Shown: piece by piece, positions 3,753 to 63,624 of the stretch
Position numbering within the stretch: position 1 is the stretch's first letter
How the letters are laid out: every line of letters begins with the position of its first letter
DNA from: a virus
Direction: 5' to 3' (one strand)
Virus record (IMG/VR): IMGVR_UViG_3300017971_007886
Coordinates: 28,967-92,966 of that record
DNA length: 64,000 nt
Position numbers and translations under genes: made by a program
The notes under the pieces: generated by a model
Databases searched by the model: none
Told to the model about the DNA's origin: nothing
The model's input: the letters and a program-made list of their open reading frames with translations, nothing else

Positions 3753-4546
3753 TGGCTCGATTCTTCAGACTCGGTGGCGATGTCAACTGGTCAGACTATG
3801 GTGGCACATGGTACAGGCGAGTCGGTCCTGGTCGGTACCACATCATGGAGCTGATCAACTGGATTGAAGCGTGTGGGGAGCGTGAGGCAAAAGAGATTGG
3901 CGCGACCTACAACGTCTCGCTCTCCGAGGTAGATGTGGCCGCCGCCTCGGACAAGGTGAAAGAGGAGGCAAAGCGTTCCTGCGGTTGGGAAGGAATGGAG
4001 GAGCAAGTCAACAACGTGGAACTGATGTGGGCCGAGGTGCTATTCCAGTACGGGTACAAGGCCCCGCTCTGGGACAAGAACGGAAACAACTACAGCCTTC
4101 TGATGAAGGAGGCAAGAGAGGAGTCAGCCTCTTTGGATGATCCCGAAGCCCATGAGGCTGCTATGAATCGACCGGTCAACAAGATTGGATCGACAGCCAG
4201 AGAGTTCATGCAGGGTGACTTCGCCTCTGCGATGGACCGTGGTGTTCGAGAAGGGCGCACTGACGCGAAGATCATGGCCAAGATGCACGGTGTACCCGAC
4301 GATGTGATTGAGAAGGTCGAGGGTCAGCCGCTCTGTGTGGGCGTGTCGTTCAGCGTGAAGATGCGCGGGACGGATGCTGTACCAAGCGATGACCCTCTCG
4401 CGTTCACGATGGGGTACATGCACGCCCGCGCCGGTCAGGGTCTCGACCACGACAGAAAGGACTTGGCTTCCGAGTACGTTCGGGGGTATCAGCTCGGTGT
4501 AGACGTGAAAGCGGGACGTGCCCCTAAACCTGAATGGCACAAGTGA
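3749..4546 (+). CDS. hypothetical protein
   Basis: 265 aa ORF, AGGAG RBS. Confidence 0.8.
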   Translation: MMARFFRLGGDVNWSDYGGTWYRRVGPGRYHIMELINWIEACGEREAKEIGATYNVSLSEVDVAAASDKVKEEAKRSCGWEGMEEQVNNVELMWAEVLFQYGYKAPLWDKNGNNYSLLMKEAREESASLDDPEAHEAAMNRPVNKIGSTAREFMQGDFASAMDRGVREGRTDAKIMAKMHGVPDDVIEKVEGQPLCVGVSFSVKMRGTDAVPSDDPLAFTMGYMHARAGQGLDHDRKDLASEYVRGYQLGVDVKAGRAPKPEWHK

Positions 4547-4559
4547 GAAGGAGTACGTT

Positions 4560-4778
4560 ATGGATTACAAAGTCATGGCACCTGTCACCCTGGAGAATGG
4601 TTCGACAGCGTGGGTAGAGATAGGCAAAGGAGTCAAGGGACATCCTGGTCGCAACAAGTACGCCGCCAGGATGACGATCACTTCACTCCCGGTACACGCA
4701 TCTGCGGGGAAGCCGTTCGACGTGTACCTCTTTGACCGAGATGCAGAAGGAGATGATGATGACCAATTCAATCGTTGA
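4560..4778 (+). CDS. hypothetical protein
   Basis: AAGGAG RBS before ATG 4560. Confidence 0.6.
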   Translation: MDYKVMAPVTLENGSTAWVEIGKGVKGHPGRNKYAARMTITSLPVHASAGKPFDVYLFDRDAEGDDDDQFNR

Positions 4779-5241
4779 TTCGATGGCACGTACACTGTGG
4801 GTGAGTACCTACGCAGATTGGTGGGACGAGGCCCCTGATGATGTTCAAGCAAAGTACCCAGGAGCGGGTGCGGGTGAGGACTGGATGGACGTAGCTCCAG
4901 GTGGTATTCCGTGCGATGTGGAAGACCAGGCGTGGAGACTCTGTGGCATGATCGAACAGGCCAACGGAATGGCCCTCGTCTGTTTGGCGGCGGCAGCCCA
5001 CAGAGCGGAGAACGAAGGAGATGGCTGCGAACGTAGTTGGCACTTCGACAACGACTTCGGCCACTGCCTCGCCATGATGGCGATGGGCACTGGAGTCAGT
5101 TGGTACGACAACCACGCAAGGTTCTACCTGGACTCGTGGAGCGATGAGCAGAAGCGAGAGATGGTGGTACCGGCCATTGACATCGCGGGTGAGCTTGATA
5201 TGGACGAGTGTGTCGATGAGGTTTGCCCGGAGGTACCGTAG
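4753..5241 (+). CDS. acidic hypothetical protein
   Basis: GAAGGAG then three tandem ATGs (start 4753-4759 uncertain). Confidence 0.75.
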   Translation: MMMTNSIVDSMARTLWVSTYADWWDEAPDDVQAKYPGAGAGEDWMDVAPGGIPCDVEDQAWRLCGMIEQANGMALVCLAAAAHRAENEGDGCERSWHFDNDFGHCLAMMAMGTGVSWYDNHARFYLDSWSDEQKREMVVPAIDIAGELDMDECVDEVCPEVP

Positions 5242-5315
5242 CAGTACATGAGGGGTACTGACGGGGTACTTTTCTATTGACTGCCCCTAGGTGGTTTGAT
5301 AGGTGTACCCCGTCA
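5233..5315. promoter_or_regulatory. intergenic regulatory element: phased GTAC array, 11-bp inverted repeat, TTGACT -35-like box
   Basis: GTAC at 5233/5244/5255/5266; TGACGGGGTAC (5259-5269) pairs with GTACCCCGTCA (5305-5315); TTGACT at 5277. Confidence 0.5.
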
Positions 5316-5415
5316 ATCCCGAATCAAGATCGTAAACCAAATGGACATGCCAGCACTTGTAATGGTACTCGTGTTGGCAGACCGAACCAAGGCCCAAGTG
5401 GTCAAGGAGAGAGCA

Positions 5416-6240
5416 ATGAACAAGAAGGACATCGAAGAAGCTGTTGCGAACGGTATCTCGGAAGGAATGGCCGAGGTCGTCTCTACGCTGGTAGAGATTC
5501 GTGACGCCATTGGTACAGCGGGGTGGGGCGGAGACAAACCTGCCGCGCCCGCTGACGAAGAGGAGCCCGAGGAACCGGAAGAGGTCGAAGAGGAGGCAGA
5601 GGAGCCCGAAGAGGAAGAGGCGGCAAGCGGGGAGTTCAACCTCGGTGACGAGGTGGTCGCGTACTTGGCTGACGAAGAGGGGAACGCTGACTGGTACGAG
5701 TCCGAGATTGTCGCTATGAACAGCGAAGGCGAGTTCACCATCAAGACGCAGGATGGTGACGAGATTCCTGGCGTGGGGCCAGGGTACTTGGCTGCCCCCG
5801 AGGATGAGGATCGTATCCTCGCAATCGAGGGCGGTGAGTTGGATGAGGAAGAGGCTCCAGAGGAGGAGCCCGAAGAAGAGGAACCCGAAGAAGAGGAACC
5901 CGAAGAGGAGGAAGAGGAAGTGGCTACCAAGAAGACCAAGAAGAAGACCTCGAAGAAGGCCACCAGCAAGAAGGAGACCGCCTCCAAGAAGGACAAGGCC
6001 GCCGAGGAGGCCGCAAAGGAGAAAGCGCGGAAGGCCAAGCGAACTCGGCTCGCGAAGGGTGTTCCCTACACCAAGGAACAGTTGCAGAGCGACAAGTTCA
6101 AGCGACAAGACCTGGTGATGTTGGCCTCGTACATCAACGAGGTCGCAGGGAAGAAGGTCATCAAGAACCCACTGGCGAAACAGGCGTTGCTGATCAACTC
6201 GATCATCAAGTACCAGAAGGTACTGAAGAAGGGCAAGTAG
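5416..6240 (+). CDS. acidic protein with Tudor/Agenet-like barrel, Lys-rich linker and C-terminal Rho-N/HeH-like helices
   Basis: AAGGAG RBS; FNLGDEVVAY...WYESEIVAM...FTIKTQDG flanked by poly-Glu tracts; KKTKKKTSKK; YTKEQLQ..KRQDLVMLA..KQALLINSII. Confidence 0.65.
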   Translation: MNKKDIEEAVANGISEGMAEVVSTLVEIRDAIGTAGWGGDKPAAPADEEEPEEPEEVEEEAEEPEEEEAASGEFNLGDEVVAYLADEEGNADWYESEIVAMNSEGEFTIKTQDGDEIPGVGPGYLAAPEDEDRILAIEGGELDEEEAPEEEPEEEEPEEEEPEEEEEEVATKKTKKKTSKKATSKKETASKKDKAAEEAAKEKARKAKRTRLAKGVPYTKEQLQSDKFKRQDLVMLASYINEVAGKKVIKNPLAKQALLINSIIKYQKVLKKGK

Positions 6241-6243
6241 CCT

Positions 6244-6516
6244 GTGAGCCCCTTCACTGATTGGCTCAAGCCTGACAAGGTAGAGTCCTTCAAAGCCGAC
6301 TACGAGGGCATCGTGTGTGAGGCGCGGTGCCCTTGTGGTGCGGTTACCCCGATCCTCTTTCAACAGGGTACCGAGGAATTGGATACGCTACTGAGTCATG
6401 GTCTCGTGATCGACGTTGAAGTGCAATGTTACTCGTGTGACCAAACTCTGTCCTACCGCACCAGTGAGACTGCGCCAGTGGTGTGGGATTCGAGGAAGCA
6501 CGAACTGAACCAGTAA
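6244..6516 (+). CDS. zinc-binding hypothetical protein
   Basis: CPCG ... CYSC. Confidence 0.6.
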   Translation: MSPFTDWLKPDKVESFKADYEGIVCEARCPCGAVTPILFQQGTEELDTLLSHGLVIDVEVQCYSCDQTLSYRTSETAPVVWDSRKHELNQ

Positions 6517-6568
6517 CCATTAACCCTTGGGTACTCAGCGCACGGGTACTCAGGATCGGAGGGAGGAC

Positions 6569-7117
6569 ATGAGGAAGCTCAGTCCCAGGGAGTACCGCGA
6601 GGTACTTTATGAAAGGGAGGTGTACCGTTCCCGAATTTATGCCCCGCCCACACGGAAGCAACTGAATCTGTACCGGAAGCCCGGTTGTGGCTTCAACCAA
6701 CAACTCTACCGACAACCAGAGAACACCAAGCGGTTGGCTCCGAGGAAGTACAAGCCGAAGATCAAGCCGCGACAGGGGTACCTGGCAGACTACGTGACTC
6801 GAACCACGGTCGCCTTCGCAAACGACAATGGCGGTGAGTGGTACGTGTCCTACGCTGGATACCAGGTGGCGATCCTCGAACGTCTGTTCTACGAGGAGAA
6901 GGCCCCCAGCATGTTGTACGAGGTCGTCGGCGGGATCTTCGCCCATCCGTTGCTGGAGGACGAAGGTATCGTTTTCATCCAGTTGTCGAGACTGGACGCA
7001 CTGGTGGAGGTGTGCCTCGAAGACCTGCGCGTGTCCCTGCAAGGCCAGGTGTCATTGGCCGATGTCCTGGCCGCAGGCGGCGAATCGGTGTTCCAATTCA
7101 GGCCACAGGCATCGTGA
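6569..7117 (+). CDS. hypothetical protein
   Basis: GGAGG RBS; basic N-half, globular C-half. Confidence 0.7.
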   Translation: MRKLSPREYREVLYEREVYRSRIYAPPTRKQLNLYRKPGCGFNQQLYRQPENTKRLAPRKYKPKIKPRQGYLADYVTRTTVAFANDNGGEWYVSYAGYQVAILERLFYEEKAPSMLYEVVGGIFAHPLLEDEGIVFIQLSRLDALVEVCLEDLRVSLQGQVSLADVLAAGGESVFQFRPQAS

Positions 7118-7130
7118 CCCATTTTGGGTA

Positions 7131-7170
7131 TTGACACTCGAAACAATTATCTGATGAAAGGTAAAGCACA
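7131..7170 (+). promoter_or_regulatory. possible sigma70-type promoter
   Basis: TTGACA at 7131 in an AT-rich intergenic gap; no convincing -10. Confidence 0.35.
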
Positions 7171-8145
7171 ATGAAGACATTCACGCAACAAGAACTTGAG
7201 AAGATGAGCCTTTTGGAGATCCGAAAGGTTGCCCGCAAATTGGGAATCACTGACATCGCTGGTAAGCGACAGAACGAAATCGTCAGGAAGATTCTAACCA
7301 AGCAAAAGCCCGGTGGCGTGGACCCACGGGTGAAGCCGAAGGAGGCTGCGGCGGCCAAGAAGAAGACCAAGGCCGAGCCCAAGCCCAAGGCTGCGAAGAA
7401 GACCAAGGCCAAGACCAAGGCTGCTCCAAAAGAGGACATCGAAGAGCCAACGTTCTCTGGTACACTGGAGCAGAGGGTGGCGCGAATCGAGATGGCCTTG
7501 GTGGGGGCAGGGATCATGGATGCGAAGATGGACAAGAAGAAGCCAGCAACGAAGACGCCGCCCAGCGTGGAGCAAGCGGTATTGCCGAGTGAGTGGTTCG
7601 ACGAGGATGGGAATCTCTCGCTCACGCCAGAGGACATCGAGTCGATGAACTTCGATTCCATCCTGGCAGTCAACAACCTCTTGGGTGACTACGCCGCCGA
7701 CATCCCTGAGTCGCAAAGGAAGACGCCACGACTCGCGAGGATGCGGTTGGTTCAGGCACTCAGGAAGATCGGTGATGTCGAACAAGGGGAGGGTGACGAC
7801 GAGCCAGAAGAGGAAGGTGAGCTGGTGGAAATCGAGCCCAACGAAGAAAGCCCGTTCCCGCCCGAGGAGGTCGGAGACCAGTGCTACATCAAGGACGAGA
7901 AAGGCCGGTGGTTTGCGGGGCTCGTCGTTGACATCTCCGAGAAGGATGGAGAGCCCTGGTACCTCATTCGCTACACCGTTGGCGATGCGGTGATCGAGGA
8001 AGAGGTCGATGTCGAGGAGCTGAAGCCTTGGGAGCCCGACGAGGAGGAAGAGGCAGAGGACGAGGAAGGCGAAGAGGAAGAGTACGAAGAAGAGGACGAG
8101 GCTGAAGAGGAAGAAGAAGAGTACGAAGAAGACGAAGACGAGTAG
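7171..8145 (+). CDS. Rho-N/HeH-like domain, Lys/Ala-rich segment, Tudor/chromo-barrel-like domain and acidic tail protein
   Basis: MSLLEIRKVARKLGI..GKRQNEIVRKIL (Rho-N-like); KKKTKAEPKPKAAKK; VGDQCYIKDEKGRWFAGLVVDI..WYLIRY..EEEVDVEELKPW; D/E tail. Confidence 0.7.
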   Translation: MKTFTQQELEKMSLLEIRKVARKLGITDIAGKRQNEIVRKILTKQKPGGVDPRVKPKEAAAAKKKTKAEPKPKAAKKTKAKTKAAPKEDIEEPTFSGTLEQRVARIEMALVGAGIMDAKMDKKKPATKTPPSVEQAVLPSEWFDEDGNLSLTPEDIESMNFDSILAVNNLLGDYAADIPESQRKTPRLARMRLVQALRKIGDVEQGEGDDEPEEEGELVEIEPNEESPFPPEEVGDQCYIKDEKGRWFAGLVVDISEKDGEPWYLIRYTVGDAVIEEEVDVEELKPWEPDEEEEAEDEEGEEEEYEEEDEAEEEEEEYEEDEDE

Positions 8146-8152
8146 CTGACGC

Positions 8153-8192
8153 GAGGGGCGGGTGCCTGTCATGGGTACCCGCCTCTTTGTGT
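8153..8192 (+). terminator. intrinsic terminator-like hairpin
   Basis: GAGGGGCGGGTGCCTG-TCA-TGGGTACCCGCCTCTT stem with G-U pairs, then TGTGT, just after a stop codon. Confidence 0.6.
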
Positions 8193-8225
8193 GCTTGGAG
8201 GTTGAGATGCGATGGAGACCGAACG

Positions 8226-8453
8226 ATGGGTAGCCTAGCACCACGGAGCCGGAAGGGTTTCATGGTGCTGATGAATGTGCCGATGCCCAAGAGCGGGCGT
8301 TGCATGTTCTGTAAACGTACTGTCCCAATTAAGGCCAAAGTCATAAGCTGTGATCATGCCCCACCTACTGGATTCGCCTGTGCTGAGTGTACTCGCCAGC
8401 GATTCCTTCCTACCGATGGCTCGCCCGAGCCCGACTTCTTCCGAAAGAGCTAA
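8226..8453 (+). CDS. small zinc-finger protein
   Basis: CMFC ... CAEC; ends just before the TGT-like gene. Confidence 0.55.
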   Translation: MGSLAPRSRKGFMVLMNVPMPKSGRCMFCKRTVPIKAKVISCDHAPPTGFACAECTRQRFLPTDGSPEPDFFRKS

Positions 8454-8455
8454 CG

Positions 8456-10531
8456 ATGACGCGAATCTACCTTGCCGGTGCGGAGAGTGGTCCGCTCTCA
8501 GATGAGCTAGAAGAGAACAACGTCAAGCACATCCTCTACTCCTATTTCTGGTTGTCGAAGAAGGATCGGGAGAGGGTGATGGTCGAACGCATAAAACGAG
8601 GTCGGGAGAATGGTATCAAATACCTGCTCGACTCGGGTGCGTTCACCTACCTCGATGCCCAACAGGCGGGCTCGCGACTCCCCTTCAACGTCTACAAGAA
8701 GAGGTACTTTGACTTCATTGCCAAGCACGGTGAGTTGTTCGAGGCGTGCGCGGAACTCGATGTCGAAGGTGCTGAGATAGACGGGATGGGTACAATCTCC
8801 CTCGACCAGGTGTGGCACTGGCGACAACAGATGTTCGAGGCTAACCCGAAAGCCACCATCATGCCCGTCTGGCACTTCGGTACTCGTACCCAAGAAGAGT
8901 GGAACACGCTTTGTGAAGATCCTCTCGTCACCTACCTTGGAATCGGAAGTACCCACAGCGGCGCAGTCTTCAATCAAGAAGGAGTATTCCACAGGCTCAT
9001 TGCGAAGGCCCATGCCCACGGCAAGCGGGTACACGGAATGGCCGCGACCAAGGTGAAGACGCAGTTGAAGAAACTCAAGTTCGACAGCGTAGACAGCGCC
9101 TCCTGGCTATCTGCCCAGAAGTTCGGTACGACGTTCATCTTCAAAAACGGGCAATGGATAGTTCTGGACAAGTACAAGAAGAACCAACGCAGAATCCATC
9201 GACGCCACTTCACCAAGATCGGCGTGGACTACCAAAAACTCGAAGCAGACAAGAGTAGCGAATTACGCCATGCAGCGATATTGGCGTGGAGAGACCTGGG
9301 AGAGTGGCTGATGAAGAAACGGGCCAAGATGCACCAAGACCTGGAAGACCAAATTGCGGCTACACCTCAAGTAGACCCAGAAGTGCCACAGGAGAAGAAA
9401 GTGCCAGCTACGAAGAAGGCCAAGAAGTCCAAAAACAAGGTACCAATCAAGGTACCCGCAAAGGTACTTTCAGGGGTACCGGCACCCCAAAAACCACCTC
9501 GCGGGAAGGCAAAATCGAGTGGTGAAGTCTTCAAAATACCGTGTCCCAGTTTTGGACAAAAAGCAGACGACGGTGCGGTAAAAAGGGGCCGAAGGGGTCG
9601 AAAACGCACATTTGCGCGGACCCCAATTACGACCAGCTCGCGGGATGGAAAACAGACTCCCAAGGTCAACGATAAAGCCACTTCTATGGATAAGGGAGAC
9701 CCTACAGAAAAGGCCCCTGATAAAGGTACCCCGTATCTCGAAGAGGTACCCCAACCTACGCTACCCCAGGAGCCAGTGTCTCAGGACGCACTTGCTACGG
9801 TAGAGCAGCCAGATAGCACACTTCCTACCTGGAAACGCCCTGATTATCTACACAAGACCGAGAAGCAGAGGTCGCTACTCCATGATCTACCACAACTGAA
9901 GTGTGGGCTGTGCTCCATAGGTACTGATTGCCCGTCCTATGATGAGTCACTACAACAGTGTGCCTTTGCTGAAAGGCTCAATGCGTTTCCAGTACGTGAT
10001 GCGGACAATCTACTGGGTGCTATGGAGTACATTGTAGATGTCAACAAGTCGCGGCTATGGAAACTACTTCTCATGGAGAACATGATCGAAGGCGGTATGC
10101 CAAGCGAACGTGCTACGCAACTTTCTGAGATTGTACTGAACCAGCTCGAACGGCTCAGAGAACAAAGAACCATGATGGAAGGCGCTGCTGTGAAAGTCAA
10201 TTCTGGACCCGGTATTCTAAGCTCCATATTTGGGGTCTCTGGAAGGGGGTCTGTGGGGGGTACGGCAGTACAGGTAAATATACAGAACGCCCCAGCTCGC
10301 GGCGCAGATGTACGTGATGATAATCCTGCCAATAGTGGGATTGTAGTGGAAGCACAGACAGTACCCCATAATGTACCTACAGAAGAGGGTACCCCTACTG
10401 CGGCTACTGATGCGCAAGTAGTAGAAGCTGAAACAGAGAATGAAGTACCTAGTTCTGGCGAATCAGGTAGCAAAGCTGACACAGGTACCACAGGAGAGGA
10501 CGCCCCCTCGGGCAAGGGGGTGGGGGGTTAA
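8456..10531 (+). CDS. TGT/DpdA-like guanine transglycosylase fused via a disordered linker to a Cys-cluster/helical C-terminal domain
   Basis: TGT-barrel motifs LLDSGAFT, ELDVE, MPVWH, LGIG, VHGMA, DSVDSASW; C-terminal CGLCSIGTDCPSY...C; queC genes nearby. Confidence 0.7.
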   Translation: MTRIYLAGAESGPLSDELEENNVKHILYSYFWLSKKDRERVMVERIKRGRENGIKYLLDSGAFTYLDAQQAGSRLPFNVYKKRYFDFIAKHGELFEACAELDVEGAEIDGMGTISLDQVWHWRQQMFEANPKATIMPVWHFGTRTQEEWNTLCEDPLVTYLGIGSTHSGAVFNQEGVFHRLIAKAHAHGKRVHGMAATKVKTQLKKLKFDSVDSASWLSAQKFGTTFIFKNGQWIVLDKYKKNQRRIHRRHFTKIGVDYQKLEADKSSELRHAAILAWRDLGEWLMKKRAKMHQDLEDQIAATPQVDPEVPQEKKVPATKKAKKSKNKVPIKVPAKVLSGVPAPQKPPRGKAKSSGEVFKIPCPSFGQKADDGAVKRGRRGRKRTFARTPITTSSRDGKQTPKVNDKATSMDKGDPTEKAPDKGTPYLEEVPQPTLPQEPVSQDALATVEQPDSTLPTWKRPDYLHKTEKQRSLLHDLPQLKCGLCSIGTDCPSYDESLQQCAFAERLNAFPVRDADNLLGAMEYIVDVNKSRLWKLLLMENMIEGGMPSERATQLSEIVLNQLERLREQRTMMEGAAVKVNSGPGILSSIFGVSGRGSVGGTAVQVNIQNAPARGADVRDDNPANSGIVVEAQTVPHNVPTEEGTPTAATDAQVVEAETENEVPSSGESGSKADTGTTGEDAPSGKGVGG

Positions 10532-13424: not shown

Positions 13425-13557
13425 GCCCCAGCACGACTTCGGTGCGCGTGATTGGGCCTTGGTCCAAGCGCATGAACAACGAATGGAGAAGGCCGACAAA
13501 CCACCGGCCCCTCGCAGGGCCACGTTCTCCATCGACCCGAGCGGGAGAGCCGTATGA
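13303..13557 (+). CDS. hypothetical protein (overlaps upstream gene by ~120 nt)
   Basis: GGAGG upstream; ATGA overlap with YkgJ gene. Confidence 0.45.
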   Translation: MAHYLTSMETLNLLQQETKEDQKRNQRRQQAIALVSRTTGRPQHDFGARDWALVQAHEQRMEKADKPPAPRRATFSIDPSGRAV

Positions 13558-14132
13558 AGATCGAAGCTGACAGACCTGAACGAGTCCTAGCCAACTTGCG
13601 TGGGATTGAGATTGACCCAGAAACAGATGCAGCCAAGATCAAGTGGTCTCACTACGAAGGCACTCCGGGTGGTGGAGTGATCGAGGTGGTCGAGGAGCAC
13701 ACCTACACGTTCGATGACCCCGTACTTCGCGGGATCACGAAAGAGCTTCACGACTACCTGGTCGAGTGTATCGAGAGGGACGAGCAACAGCCTCACGAGG
13801 AGAACTCGTGTGAGACGTGTACGACTCAGAACTGCTGTTCGAGCGACTTCTCAGAACCACTGTGGTTGACCCAGAGCGACATCGAAATGTTGGAGCTGGA
13901 TGACGACCAGGTGTGTTTCCTCGGTGAAGGCCACTGGGCCGGAAAGGGAGGTGGCAGTTGGGATGGGAATGACGATCCAGCGTGCAGCGACATCATTGGG
14001 TACATGGTCCGTGATCCGTGGTGCCCTCTTCTCGAAAATGGGAAGTGCTCGAAGTATGGTGTTCGCCCGCTTTCGTGCCGACTTGGCCCAGAGCGGAATT
14101 GCGGAATCAAAGACCTAGATAAGGAGACCTGA
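13554..14132 (+). CDS. YkgJ-family (CxxCxxCC) Fe-S/Zn cluster protein, related to FliB
   Basis: CETCTTQNCC, LTQSDI, WCPLLENGKCSKYGVRPLSCR match the YkgJ pattern. Confidence 0.8.
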   Translation: MKIEADRPERVLANLRGIEIDPETDAAKIKWSHYEGTPGGGVIEVVEEHTYTFDDPVLRGITKELHDYLVECIERDEQQPHEENSCETCTTQNCCSSDFSEPLWLTQSDIEMLELDDDQVCFLGEGHWAGKGGGSWDGNDDPACSDIIGYMVRDPWCPLLENGKCSKYGVRPLSCRLGPERNCGIKDLDKET

Positions 14133-14134
14133 TC

Positions 14135-14833
14135 ATGGCAACAGTCGCGTACAGCGGTGGGATCGACAGCACCGTCCTCATGTACGAGTTGGCCTCTCAA
14201 GGCCGCCTCAACCTGGCGGTACTCTGCAACTTCGGACAGCCATCGTTTGATCGACAGCTTCGTTGTGCGGAGTATCAGATCGCCAAACTCGAAGAGCATG
14301 GCGTGGATGTCCACTTCCGGGTGGTGGAGTTCAAGACGCCCGAGGAGTTCCAGGTCAAGGAGGCTTCTCCGTTCTTCTCGATGCGGCCTCTGAACCCACT
14401 GGCCAAGGCACCAAAGAAAATGAAGGACGCCATCGCGTATCGACTCGATAACTTCGCCATCACCCCAGGACGGAACGCTTTCATGGTCTTGATGGTTGGG
14501 ATGGTCGCGGCGGCCTTGGAGACGAACCCGGCAGTGGTCACGGCGTACCAGTACGAACAGGACATCTGGGATACGCAGGACACCATCTCAGGGGACGAGT
14601 CGCCCTCGTTCTGGTTGAAGATGGGCATGGTTTTGGAGACGGCCTTCGAGGTACCTGTGGCGCTTGAGAACCCGTTCTTGGATCGTCATTGGGACAAGGA
14701 GCGCATCATCCGTGAGGGTATCGAGTACGGAATCGACTTCGCACACACGATGTCCTGCGAATTTGAGGAGCCCTGCGGCGAGTGCGCCCAGTGCCAACTG
14801 GTCAAGAAGACGGTTGCCAAAACCAGGGGCTAG
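14135..14833 (+). CDS. divergent QueC-like PP-loop ATP pyrophosphatase
   Basis: YSGGIDS, NFGQ, TPGRN, ENPF, TMSCEFEEPCGECAQC; lacks YPDC and the Arg after the last Cys. Confidence 0.8.
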   Translation: MATVAYSGGIDSTVLMYELASQGRLNLAVLCNFGQPSFDRQLRCAEYQIAKLEEHGVDVHFRVVEFKTPEEFQVKEASPFFSMRPLNPLAKAPKKMKDAIAYRLDNFAITPGRNAFMVLMVGMVAAALETNPAVVTAYQYEQDIWDTQDTISGDESPSFWLKMGMVLETAFEVPVALENPFLDRHWDKERIIREGIEYGIDFAHTMSCEFEEPCGECAQCQLVKKTVAKTRG

Positions 14834-14958: not shown

Positions 14959-15072
14959 ATGGCACGAGGAAAGAAGAGAGCCTACAAAATGACCACCAAG
15001 GGCAAGCGAACCAAGGCGTTCAAGCCCCTCTTCGGAAAGAAGAAGGTCAAGGGCGGCAAGGGCGGCAAGTAG
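14959..15072 (+). CDS. 37-aa Lys/Gly-rich micropeptide 1 (MARGKKRAYKMTTKGKRTKAFKPLFGKKKVKGGKGGK)
   Basis: GAAGGAG 7 nt before ATG; paralogous to next peptide with mostly synonymous differences; below ORF-track cutoff. Confidence 0.85.
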   Translation: MARGKKRAYKMTTKGKRTKAFKPLFGKKKVKGGKGGK

Positions 15073-15075
15073 GTC

Positions 15076-15186
15076 ATGGCCCGTGGGAAGAAGACGCTGG
15101 TGAAGCGTCTCAAGACCAAGGCCGGGGCCGTACTGCGCCGACTCTTCGGCAAGAAGAAGGTCACGGGAGGTAAAGGCGGCAAGTAG
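15076..15186 (+). CDS. 36-aa Lys/Gly-rich micropeptide 2 (MARGKKTLVKRLKTKAGAVLRRLFGKKKVTGGKGGK)
   Basis: Starts 3 nt after peptide 1 stop; same N- and C-terminal motifs. Confidence 0.85.
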   Translation: MARGKKTLVKRLKTKAGAVLRRLFGKKKVTGGKGGK

Positions 15187-61934: not shown

Positions 61935-63338
61935 ATGCACGGTGCCCCCGAGCAACAGTCGGTGTCCGTCTTCACGGACTCGTGGACCTGGATACCGCTG
62001 ACTCATGTGAAAGATGTCGAGGCCCTGAAACTCGCGTTGACCGTTCCAAATGGAGCCTACTTCGCTTCAATGAACGCGGGCCTTCCGACGAACGTTGACT
62101 CAGAGTTCTTCTGCTACACCATCGAGGACGGATACATTGGTGTGCCGAGGAACTTCGCATACGAGAAGTTCTTGATCCACGAAGTGCCGGTCACGGTAGG
62201 CCCTGCTCGACAGATGAGTCCGTGGGATTCGTGGCCTCACAGAATCGAACTCCGAGACGGGCAAGCCCCTGCGGTCGATTCCCTCTTGGAGCCCGGCGAC
62301 AAGATTCTGTCGTTGGCTTGCGGTAAGGGTAAGAGCGTTGTGTCACTGTACGCCCTTTGCCAGCAACCAGAGATTCGGTTGCCCGCCCTCATTGTGGTCC
62401 ACACGAAGGTACTCATGGAGCAGTGGGTGAAGATGATTCGCACCCACCTTCGGATGGGCCTTGCCCGCGTTGGTCGGATTCAGGGCAAGACGGTGGACTA
62501 TCGAGGGCGGCCCTTCACTGTGGCGATGTTGCAAAGCCTCGTGAAGAAAGAGTACCCCGCCGACATGATGCACTACTTCAACACCATTGTCTTTGATGAG
62601 ATCCACCGACTCGGAGCGCCAGGGTTCTCCCAGGCAGCGCCGATGTTCACGGCCCAGCGATGGGGACTGTCGGCTACCCACTCTCGGAAGGATGGGAATG
62701 ACAAGGTGTTCAAGCTCCACTGCGGTAGGGTGGCCTACACAGACCTCACCCAAGAGCTGAAGCCGAAGGTGTACTTCATCCAGACCGAGATAGTGGTGAA
62801 CATGCGGGCACACCAGATGTGGAGAGACCGGACGAAGATCAACTTCGCCAAGCTCCTCAACACCTTGTCGTATGACGAGGAGCGAAACCGTCTCATCATG
62901 TACTACGTGAACAAGGCAATGGCCAAGGACAGAACAGTTCTGGTTCTCGGTGAGCGGGTAGAACAGCTCACGGCCTTGGCCGAGGAGTGCGGAGAGAAAG
63001 CAAGCCCACTCGTTGGTCCTATGAAGGCCGCCGAGAGGACTAAGGCACTCAAGAATCAGACCGTCTTCGCGACTGCGGCCTTGGCAAAGGAGGGACTTGA
63101 TCGACCGGCGTTCGATACACTGGTCATCATCATTCCCACCACCAACCCGGCGTGGCTGCAACAGGCGTTGGGTCGAATACTCAGGAAGTACGGAGACAAA
63201 CAGCAACCGAAGGTACTCATCTTCGAGGACGTGAATGTTCCTCCGATGCAGAAGCGGTGCGACAAGGTGCGTGTCTGGTTGCGTACACAGAAGATCAAAT
63301 CGAAGACCGTGAAAGGAGGCATTGATGGGAGAGATTGA
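61935..63338 (+). CDS. superfamily 2 DEAD/DEAH-box helicase (UvsW/Rad25-like)
   Basis: LRDGQ, LACGKGKS, FDEIH, GLSAT, KEGLD, QQALGRILR. Confidence 0.92.
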   Translation: MHGAPEQQSVSVFTDSWTWIPLTHVKDVEALKLALTVPNGAYFASMNAGLPTNVDSEFFCYTIEDGYIGVPRNFAYEKFLIHEVPVTVGPARQMSPWDSWPHRIELRDGQAPAVDSLLEPGDKILSLACGKGKSVVSLYALCQQPEIRLPALIVVHTKVLMEQWVKMIRTHLRMGLARVGRIQGKTVDYRGRPFTVAMLQSLVKKEYPADMMHYFNTIVFDEIHRLGAPGFSQAAPMFTAQRWGLSATHSRKDGNDKVFKLHCGRVAYTDLTQELKPKVYFIQTEIVVNMRAHQMWRDRTKINFAKLLNTLSYDEERNRLIMYYVNKAMAKDRTVLVLGERVEQLTALAEECGEKASPLVGPMKAAERTKALKNQTVFATAALAKEGLDRPAFDTLVIIIPTTNPAWLQQALGRILRKYGDKQQPKVLIFEDVNVPPMQKRCDKVRVWLRTQKIKSKTVKGGIDGRD

Positions 63339-63624
63339 TGGGGAACTCGAACATGGAATAGAGAGGTTCCGACGTGAGCTGGAAGATTGGTCGTACCACC
63401 TATCGAAGTACGGCCCAACCAACGCAACACCACTACACCTTGGTTCTCTGCGGTCCAAGGTGGACATCCTGACAGCAGACTTTGGTGAACTCGAAGTCTT
63501 GATGTGCAGTTGGATTGAGGAGATGAAGGCCAGAGAGAAAGACCTAGAAGAGCAAGAGAATGAACTCGAAGAGAGTGAAGACCTAGAAGAGGAGGAAGAC
63601 GATGCCGACGACGAGGCAGATTAA
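63325..63624 (+). CDS. acidic coiled-coil protein
   Basis: AAGGAGG RBS. Confidence 0.65.
   Translation: MGEIDGELEHGIERFRRELEDWSYHLSKYGPTNATPLHLGSLRSKVDILTADFGELEVLMCSWIEEMKAREKDLEEQENELEESEDLEEEEDDADDEAD

Follow-up and report, generated by a model that had tools for sequence, protein, structure and literature searches.

Two phage genes and their parts

The window analysed here is a stretch of viral DNA of 64,000 nucleotides, corresponding to bases 28967-92966 of the IMG/VR virus record IMGVR_UViG_3300017971_007886 (92,966 bp, classed as a provirus and estimated to be 98% complete). All genes lie on the + strand, and coordinates refer to the window unless they are given as genome positions. 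Two open reading frames (ORFs) are the subject of this analysis: ORF1 (5416-6240; 274 amino acids, P0001) and ORF2 (7171-8145; 324 amino acids, P0002). Both products have an isoelectric point (pI) of 4.4, with net charges of -36 and -42, respectively. The ATG of ORF1 at 5416 is preceded by an AAGGAG ribosome-binding site, and ORF2 is an open frame with a plausible start. An exhaustive phmmer search with ORF1 returned four full-length homologues of 29-50% identity, giving five aligned family members (ORF1, P0007, P0015, P0022, and P0039), and further look-ups added P0054 and P0055, which brings the ORF1 homologues to six. The homologues of ORF2 are P0003, P0004, and P0005, with 45-57% identity. 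PHROGs contains no family for ORF1, ORF2, or seven of the homologues, and searches for related loci in viral, genome, and metagenome collections with both family alignments and P0054 retrieved nothing. We conclude that ORF1 and ORF2 are real genes and that they represent two rare but conserved phage protein families. Members of both families seem to co-occur in at least three phages: P0004 (ORF2 family) and P0007 (ORF1 family) are each assigned to a Logan contig 4,141 nucleotides long, and P0005 (ORF2 family) and P0015 (ORF1 family) each to an NCBI contig of 17,547 nucleotides. P0039 and P0054 belong to IMG contigs of 51-86 kb.

ORF1 starts with a helical segment (residues 3-35, 5422-5520) in which G17, V22, and L25 and an 'LVEIRD' stretch are conserved in the family alignment; AlphaFold2 models it as two helices (3-16 and 18-35) with low to middling values of the predicted local distance difference test (pLDDT). 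A first acidic tract (residues 47-68, 5554-5619; disordered, pLDDT <50) leads to a Tudor/Agenet-like barrel (residues 74-127, 5635-5796) with a net charge of about -13 and an invariant W93. The barrel is followed by a capping helix (residues 129-138, 5800-5829), which carries the invariant residues D130, R133, and E138 ('DxDRxxxxE') and is modelled over residues 131-138 with a pLDDT of 84-88. Next come a second disordered acidic tract (residues 141-168, 5836-5919), a Lys-rich stretch running into a long helix (residues 171-214, 5926-6057; modelled helix 190-214), and a C-terminal helix-loop-helix resembling helix-extension-helix (HeH) domains (residues 215-274, 6058-6237; modelled helices 230-244 and 256-273, pLDDT 82-89). 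The basic character of the Lys-rich stretch is kept in all five aligned family members, and it always precedes the HeH-like module, whose invariant residues are G215, P217, Y218, K229, R230, L259, and I260 (the 'GxPY' and 'KR' positions). The initial annotation, which was made from the DNA letters, gave the order as acidic, barrel, acidic, Lys-rich, and HeH-like; this order is correct, with the N-terminal helical segment and the conserved capping helix overlooked.

ORF2 begins with an HeH/Rho_N domain (residues 4-46, 7180-7308; PF07498, pLDDT 83-90), followed by the motif 'LTKQKPGGVDPRVKPKxAAAAK' (residues 42-63, 7294-7359). This motif is strictly invariant, being identical in all four family members, which are otherwise only 45-57% identical, and we infer that it binds a partner or a groove. 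A disordered Lys/Ala-rich linker (residues 64-87, 7360-7431) connects it to a conserved helical middle region (residues 97-201, 7459-7773; pLDDT 66-76) with invariant 'RxARIE' and 'RxARMRLV' stretches. A second HeH possibly lies at residues 150-200, where self-alignment to the N-terminal HeH is weak (E 0.034); an ESM Atlas search with residues 95-205 gave only low scores and a weak SAP-like structural lead. The middle region is followed by an acidic linker (residues 204-227, 7780-7851), whose acidic character is kept in the orthologues in shorter form, by a second Tudor/Agenet-like barrel (residues 232-287, 7864-8031; net charge about -10; invariant G235, D236, W247, G250, G260, and E283), and by a poly-Glu tail (residues 288-324, 8032-8142). 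Both the AlphaFold2 model and the sequence layout agree with the order HeH, Lys-Ala, helical, acidic, barrel, and acidic tail that had been proposed.

The N-terminal part of ORF2, which had been called HeH/Rho-N-like, is a true Rho_N/HeH domain above the Pfam cut-off: residues 8-45 score 26.1 bits on PF07498 (cut-off 24.9; 29.6 bits in the genome search), and PF07498 is matched by all four members of the ORF2 family. In the exhaustive structural alignment against 48,161 chains (VIA), this end of ORF2 superposes on residues 1-48 of E. coli Rho (1a62_A) with a Z score of 6.7 and a root-mean-square deviation (rmsd) of 2.7 Å over 48 aligned residues. The C-terminus of ORF1, by contrast, is matched by Pfam HeH/Rho_N in none of the five aligned family members. 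In hhalign, however, it aligns in register with the ORF2 HeH, with E-values of 5.7e-4 for the isolated segments and 1e-3 for the full profiles. Profile-profile alignment of the two barrels gave E-values of 1.4e-3 for the segments and 2e-4 for the full-length profiles, the latter over a span that includes the acidic flanks. For barrels and HeH modules alike, the isolated-segment scores lay above those of all 100 column-shuffled controls. Because the profile alignments of both modules beat the shuffles, we hold that, judged from their sequences, ORF1 and ORF2 share two modules in swapped order at the superfamily level. BLASTP detected no significant similarity between ORF1 and ORF2, so that the shared modules are visible to profile methods only, and a recent duplication of one gene into the other was rejected on this ground. 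The domains themselves are known; what is new is the architecture and its context, namely an HeH joined to an acidic Tudor-like barrel in a phage.

Measured against the Rho_N/HeH/SAP/LEM modules as a group, ORF2 residues 4-46 pass the PF07498 threshold, and two further modules, the C-terminus of ORF1 and a segment of a third protein of this phage, align to the ORF2 HeH. Compared with Rho itself, the phage proteins lack the OB and ATPase domains; the loop between the two helices is longer in the ORF1 module, which also has no Pfam match. The third modular protein (genome 24628-25362, outside the window; 244 amino acids) consists of an N-terminal helix, a Lys/Ser stretch, poly-Glu, the HeH, a Lys-rich stretch, and a Cys-containing C-terminal domain. 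Its HeH aligns to that of ORF2 with an E-value of 5.8e-5, and it has no barrel. A weak match to phrog_3281 covers its HeH region.

Tudor-like barrels with an incomplete aromatic cage

The AlphaFold2 models place beta-barrels exactly where the initial annotation had expected them, at about 5635-5800 (pLDDT 86-91) and about 7864-8035 (pLDDT 80-87), and the xGDxV/C...W(Y/F) pattern described there is found in both. In Foldseek searches, the ORF1 barrel matched PHF20 Tudor2 with a template modelling (TM) score of 0.81-0.83 and an rmsd of 1.8 Å, TDRD3 with 0.80, and also PHF1, LBR, and SGF29. The ORF2 barrel matched the TDRD3 Tudor domain (TM 0.78), the MRG2 chromo-barrel (0.79-0.81), and ERCC6L2 (0.76); PHF20 Tudor, 53BP1, the NSD2 PWWP domain, and a plant Agenet domain were further matches. 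VIA gave a similar picture, with LBR (Z 8.1) and SMN (Z 7.9) for ORF1, and TbTudor (Z 8.6), ERCC6L2 (8.2), and PHF19 (8.1) for ORF2. For both barrels, Tudor-family chains hold nearly all top ranks (Z 7.5-8.8), and KOW/NusG rows follow at 6.0-7.2. Since this gap is small, evidence from the sequence matters for the Tudor label. The ORF1 barrel retrieved many-repeat proteins of stramenopile algae in phmmer searches, with whole-protein E-values down to 9e-41 that are summed over the repeats, and Pfam classifies these repeats as Agenet or Tudor. Neither ORF1 nor ORF2 passes a Pfam cut-off for Tudor/Agenet (clan CL0049); P0022 of the ORF1 family comes to 27.4 bits with the Tudor_2 profile, for which the cut-off is 31.4, and the ORF2 barrel reaches a sub-threshold 16.8 bits on Agenet PF05641 (cut-off 27). 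According to the models, both proteins contain an SH3-like five-strand barrel of the Tudor type, and the label 'Tudor-like' is justified by fold and weakly by sequence. All nine family barrels are net negative, with charges from -4 to -13.

Tudor/Agenet-type barrels are hallmark modules of eukaryotic chromatin and RNA granules. The phage barrels share the five-strand fold of eukaryotic Tudor, chromo-barrel, and Agenet domains (PHF20/PHF20L1 Tudor2, TDRD3, SMN, LBR, FXR1/2, and MRG) with TM scores of about 0.8, rmsd values of 1.5-2.5 Å, and Z scores of 7.5-8.6, and they have the sequence frame 'GDxV...W(Y/F)...(Y/F)xVx(F/Y)xDG' in common with the eukaryotic Tudor/Agenet domains. Chromo-barrels also have a capping helix like that of ORF1. 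Unlike their eukaryotic counterparts, the phage barrels are strongly acidic, have an incomplete and unconserved cage, are fused to an HeH module, and occur in a phage. PHF20L1's tandem Tudor domains also bind DNA strongly (PMC13285377). Outside eukaryotes, most such barrels on record belong to secreted proteins of bacteria (PMC5906684), a few RNA-binding ones being exceptions. These bacterial chromo-like domains resemble the phage barrels as a Tudor-like sequence type outside eukaryotes; they are, however, consistently found in secreted proteins, often together with peptidases, whereas the phage proteins have no signal peptide and carry DNA-binding modules (Kaur, Iyer, & Aravind, 2018, PMC5906684).

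The aromatic cage of PHF20L1 Tudor2 is formed by W97, Y103, and F120 together with D122 (PMC13285377). We mapped these positions by a phmmer alignment of the ORF1 barrel to Tudor2 of PHF20L1 and PHF20, and read the cage columns from a MAFFT alignment of the nine phage barrels, the algal repeats, and a PHF20L1 fragment. At the positions of W97/Y103/F120/D122, ORF1 has L84/Y94/T111/D113 and hence one of the three cage aromatics, and ORF2 has D242/F248/Y268/V270, that is, two of the three without the Asp. Within the ORF1 family, the corresponding residues are L/Y/T/D in P0007, F/S/F/N in P0015, F/Y/F/D in P0022, and F/V/L/D in P0039; within the ORF2 family, they are D/H/Y/A in P0003, W/C/Y/D in P0004, and Y/V/V/G in P0005. 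The algal repeats keep all four cage positions. No cage column is aromatic throughout either family, and P0022 alone among the nine phage barrels has the full set. The sole invariant aromatic residue, W93 in ORF1 and W247 in ORF2, falls one position ahead of the cage tyrosine in this alignment and is probably structural. The same argument has been made for PSHCP, a cyanobacterial Tudor protein that has one cage aromatic and binds RNA (bioRxiv 10.1101/542068).

These results bear on the proposal of the initial annotation that the barrels read methylated Lys or Arg through an aromatic cage. The Tudor/Agenet-like fold, the cage positions that are kept (Y94 and D113 in ORF1, F248 and Y268 in ORF2, and the complete set in P0022), and the presence of basic peptides and an H1-like protein in the genome are compatible with such readers, or with histone-chaperone-like handlers of the phage's basic peptides; bacterial chromo-like domains, moreover, often keep cage residues (PMC5906684). 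The phage genome, however, encodes no SET-domain methyltransferase, and the acidic tracts to which a chaperone function was attached are not conserved (see below). Because both proteins lack part of the canonical cage and neither family conserves it, methyl-Lys/Arg reading is unlikely as a conserved function, and we consider readers or chaperone-like handlers of this kind very improbable. Given the residues aligned in P0022, some family members might nevertheless read modified residues. The opposite outcome that had been foreseen, generic SH3/KOW barrels devoid of a cage, was found in one half only: the barrels rank as Tudor-like, and a conserved cage is lacking.

Charged tracts

Of all ORFs in the 93-kb genome, only four contain dense acidic tracts, and HeH-like and Lys-rich parts are found in three of these four as well. 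The charged tracts are disordered in the AlphaFold2 models, and most of them coincide with tandem repeats in the DNA. Acidic tract 1 of ORF1 is built on two copies of a 30-nucleotide tandem repeat (5556-5614) and is not conserved in the orthologues. Acidic tract 2 contains 3.7 copies of a 15-nucleotide unit with 92% match (5859-5913) and is absent from P0022 and P0039. In ORF2, the Lys/Ala linker contains 12- and 18-nucleotide repeats (7353-7421), its place being taken by an acidic linker in P0005, and the poly-Glu tail contains 6-, 9-, and 15-nucleotide repeats (8044-8141) and is missing from all three homologues. Four homologues of ORF1 lack an acidic tract altogether and are basic (pI about 9). 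With whole-protein pI values ranging from 4.4 to 9.3, acidity was rejected as a defining trait of the families. We conclude that lineage-specific and mostly recent expansions of DNA repeats by slippage gave rise to the long acidic tracts and to the Lys-rich tract of ORF2. Striking poly-Glu and poly-Lys tracts can, as here, be recent slippage products and not conserved modules. The fourth ORF with a dense acidic tract (63322-63624, 100 amino acids, 12 D/E in 15 residues) lies at the far end of the window.

The acidic tracts had also been taken as a hallmark of histone chaperones. As lineage-specific repeat expansions that are missing from several orthologues, they do not bear this out, and neither ORF1 nor ORF2 has a Pfam or fold match to an acidic histone chaperone of the nucleoplasmin/NAP type. 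Like HMGB1-type proteins with a basic part and an acidic tail, and like acidic chaperones, the two window proteins have both basic arms and long acidic tails, and by analogy their tails could be self-inhibiting or compete for basic partners. They differ in having neither an HMG box nor a chaperone fold. Because the families do not conserve these tails, the resemblance is at most a lineage-specific overlay.

The same tracts invite the idea that the proteins are DNA mimics or anti-restriction decoys, in which poly-Glu would imitate the DNA backbone and trap DNA-binding defence proteins of the host. The net charges of -36 and -42 and the long Glu runs of the window's two proteins fit this idea. 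Known DNA mimics such as Ocr and ArdA, however, are folded. Here, the Glu runs are disordered products of DNA repeats, most orthologues lack them, and the pI of four homologues of ORF1 is basic, as mentioned above. We therefore regard DNA mimicry as extremely improbable.

Possible role and genome setting

Both proteins have one basic-plus-HeH end and an acidic, cage-poor barrel, and on this basis we read them as adaptors that are anchored on nucleic acid and use the acidic barrel to hold a partner protein of basic charge, and not as methyl-lysine readers. We give this reading about an even chance. In each protein, the helix-extension-helix module next to the conserved basic segment would form the end that binds nucleic acid, DNA or, less likely, RNA. 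ORF2 would be anchored by its N-terminal bona fide Rho_N together with the invariant KPGGVDPRVKPK motif behind it, and ORF1 by the K/R-rich stretch and the divergent HeH-like module that forms its C-terminus. Because the barrels are acidic and cage-poor, a basic protein or peptide appears to be a more fitting ligand for them than nucleic acid. The single Tudor/Agenet-like barrel on its flexible linker would thus hold such a ligand by charge and shape, not by methyl-lysine; candidates are the H1-like protein of the phage, the two basic peptides encoded upstream of terL, and a host nucleoid protein. Alternatively, the barrel might bind the protein's own basic arm as a form of self-inhibition. 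The Glu and Lys expansions would serve as tunable disordered spacers and at most add a lineage-specific layer of self-inhibition. Such adaptors may help to handle DNA of the phage or the host in the interval from replication to packaging. Of the suggestion that the proteins are nucleoid proteins or chaperones and readers for basic peptides, a nucleoid or DNA-associated role is still plausible; methyl reading and the chaperone analogy are not supported.

Alternatively, the proteins could be directed at RNA and act on transcripts as chaperones or as modulators of termination or antitermination, like ProQ, PSHCP, or the N-terminal region of Rho. The N-terminus of ORF2 is indeed Rho_N by Pfam and superposes on the N-terminus of the Rho RNA-binding domain, PSHCP is among the structural matches of the barrels and binds RNA without a cage, and ProQ joins a basic linker to a Tudor-fold domain. 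The phage barrels are, however, strongly acidic, which is unfavourable for RNA contact, and the Pfam scans found no FinO or OB domain. In addition, the HeH subdomain is presumably not the part of Rho that contacts RNA; we take this part to be the OB fold, which is absent here. On balance, an RNA-directed role is possible but rather unlikely. The C-terminal domain of ProQ (PMC5393179) and PSHCP nevertheless offer parallels, their Tudor folds being likewise poor in cage residues and associated with nucleic-acid binding; in ProQ, moreover, this fold is attached through a basic flexible linker. The phage proteins differ from ProQ in having no FinO domain, and PSHCP is a lone basic RNA-binding barrel, whereas the phage barrels are acidic and probably bind protein.

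Several points weigh against the reading as nucleic-acid-anchored, methyl-independent adaptors. Nucleic-acid binding and the barrel partner are both inferred. The HeH of ORF1 goes undetected by Pfam and depends on the model and on a weak profile similarity (hhalign probability 22-30%). The Z scores of the Tudor chains exceed those of KOW/NusG by only about 1-1.5, so that the fold alone does not separate the two classes. The cage positions were mapped from a sequence alignment and not from model coordinates, and one homologue, P0022, retains a complete cage. Finally, the assignment of homologues from both families to the same contigs is based solely on the equal source and equal nucleotide size of these contigs.

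Each gene is preceded by a -35-like TATTGAC box, located at 5275-5281 (141 nucleotides upstream of ORF1) and at 7129-7135 (42 nucleotides upstream of ORF2), which agrees with the TTGAC box noted before each gene by the initial annotation. On the + strand of the window, TATTGAC is found at two sites only, both in these upstream spacers, a count that is not above chance. In intergenic DNA, ATTGAC was found seven times against 1.9 expected, and ATTGAC and TTGACA are modestly, about three-fold, enriched. There is no convincing -10 element at the ORF1 box, a sigma-70 consensus scan called no promoter at the TATTGAC boxes, and an Rfam scan of 4500-8600 gave nothing credible. A -35-like element shared by the two genes is plausible, and its sequence would be consistent with a promoter function. 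The intergenic sequence 'GACCGAT-TTGAC(T/A)' recurs three times, at genome positions 691, 24267, and 90829 (window 61863), and TATAAT follows the first copy; the motif may mark a class of phage promoters other than that of the TATTGAC boxes.

The separate boxes are one of the features that would suit proteins for host take-over, in which the barrel docks on host RNA polymerase or another host machine in the manner of CarD/TRCF and the HeH brings in DNA. Another is the strictly invariant ORF2 motif, which resembles a docking peptide for a conserved target, and CarD/TRCF-type Tudor-like domains are reported to bind the beta subunit of RNA polymerase (PMC4374960). Against this, neither ORF1 and ORF2 nor their family members give a Pfam CarD_CdnL_TRCF signal. 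CarD/TRCF chains are also not among the structural matches listed, though this absence is not decisive. We judge host take-over of this type quite improbable.

ORF1 and ORF2 are positioned between the replication genes and a block of DpdA, QueC, and terL genes. Upstream lie the replication genes and folE/queD/queE-type genes. Downstream follow a gene for a DpdA/queuine tRNA-ribosyltransferase (TGT)-like protein (8387-10531; 714 amino acids; phrog_887, E 1.3e-41 over residues 21-620), a CxxCxxCC/YkgJ-like gene (13554-14132), QueC (14135-14833), and two tandem basic micro-ORFs of 37 and 36 amino acids (14959-15072 and 15076-15186). The region of the DpdA-like protein that matches phrog_887 includes a long Lys/Pro-rich insert. 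Both micro-ORF peptides, whose genes immediately precede terL (15269), start with MARGKK and end with LFGKKKVxGGKGGK, and they are candidates for the basic partners of the acidic barrels. The genome further encodes an H1-like protein (genome 26031-26585; 184 amino acids, pI 10.2), the N-terminal half of which consists of repeated 'KAPKGTAKAKK' and which has no match in Pfam or PHROG. An ATTGACA box is located about 100 nucleotides upstream of its gene. TerL is only about 35% identical to the TerL proteins of Bacillus phage BCD7 and Streptomyces phage BRock. When 50,697 phage records were searched by blastn and tblastn, a poly-Glu DNA match was the only result, with no protein match to ORF1 or ORF2. 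Because these records hold nothing resembling the two proteins, we regard the phage lineage as uncultured.

The company of an H1-like protein, basic micro-peptides, and a set of genes for 7-deazaguanine modification of DNA allows a bolder version of the adaptor reading, which we consider rather improbable. In this version, the HeH-anchored acidic barrels would be part of a chromatin-like kit: they would capture the Lys-rich tails of the H1-like protein and of the two GGKGGK-ended peptides and load them onto, or strip them from, 7-deazaguanine-modified DNA around packaging. If true, such a kit would parallel tail-binding reader modules in a virus of prokaryotes, having evolved without methyl marks. 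More generally, should basic tails indeed be held on DNA by the barrels, this would offer a simple and testable model of tail recognition without methyl marks and an unrecognised class of phage DNA-organising proteins. Otherwise, ORF1 and ORF2 still represent two families that are absent from PHROGs and covered by Pfam only through the Rho_N domain of ORF2.

Three other ORFs of the phage encode Cys-rich or acidic-tailed products. Two small ORFs rich in Cys pairs, encoding 90 and 88 amino acids, lie between ORF1 and ORF2 (6244-6516) and after ORF2 (8187-8453); they have no family matches and are probably zinc ribbons. A protein of 322 amino acids (genome 6993-7961) contains several CxxC pairs and ends in an Asp run plus 'EVF', an ending that looks like the acidic tail of single-strand DNA-binding proteins.

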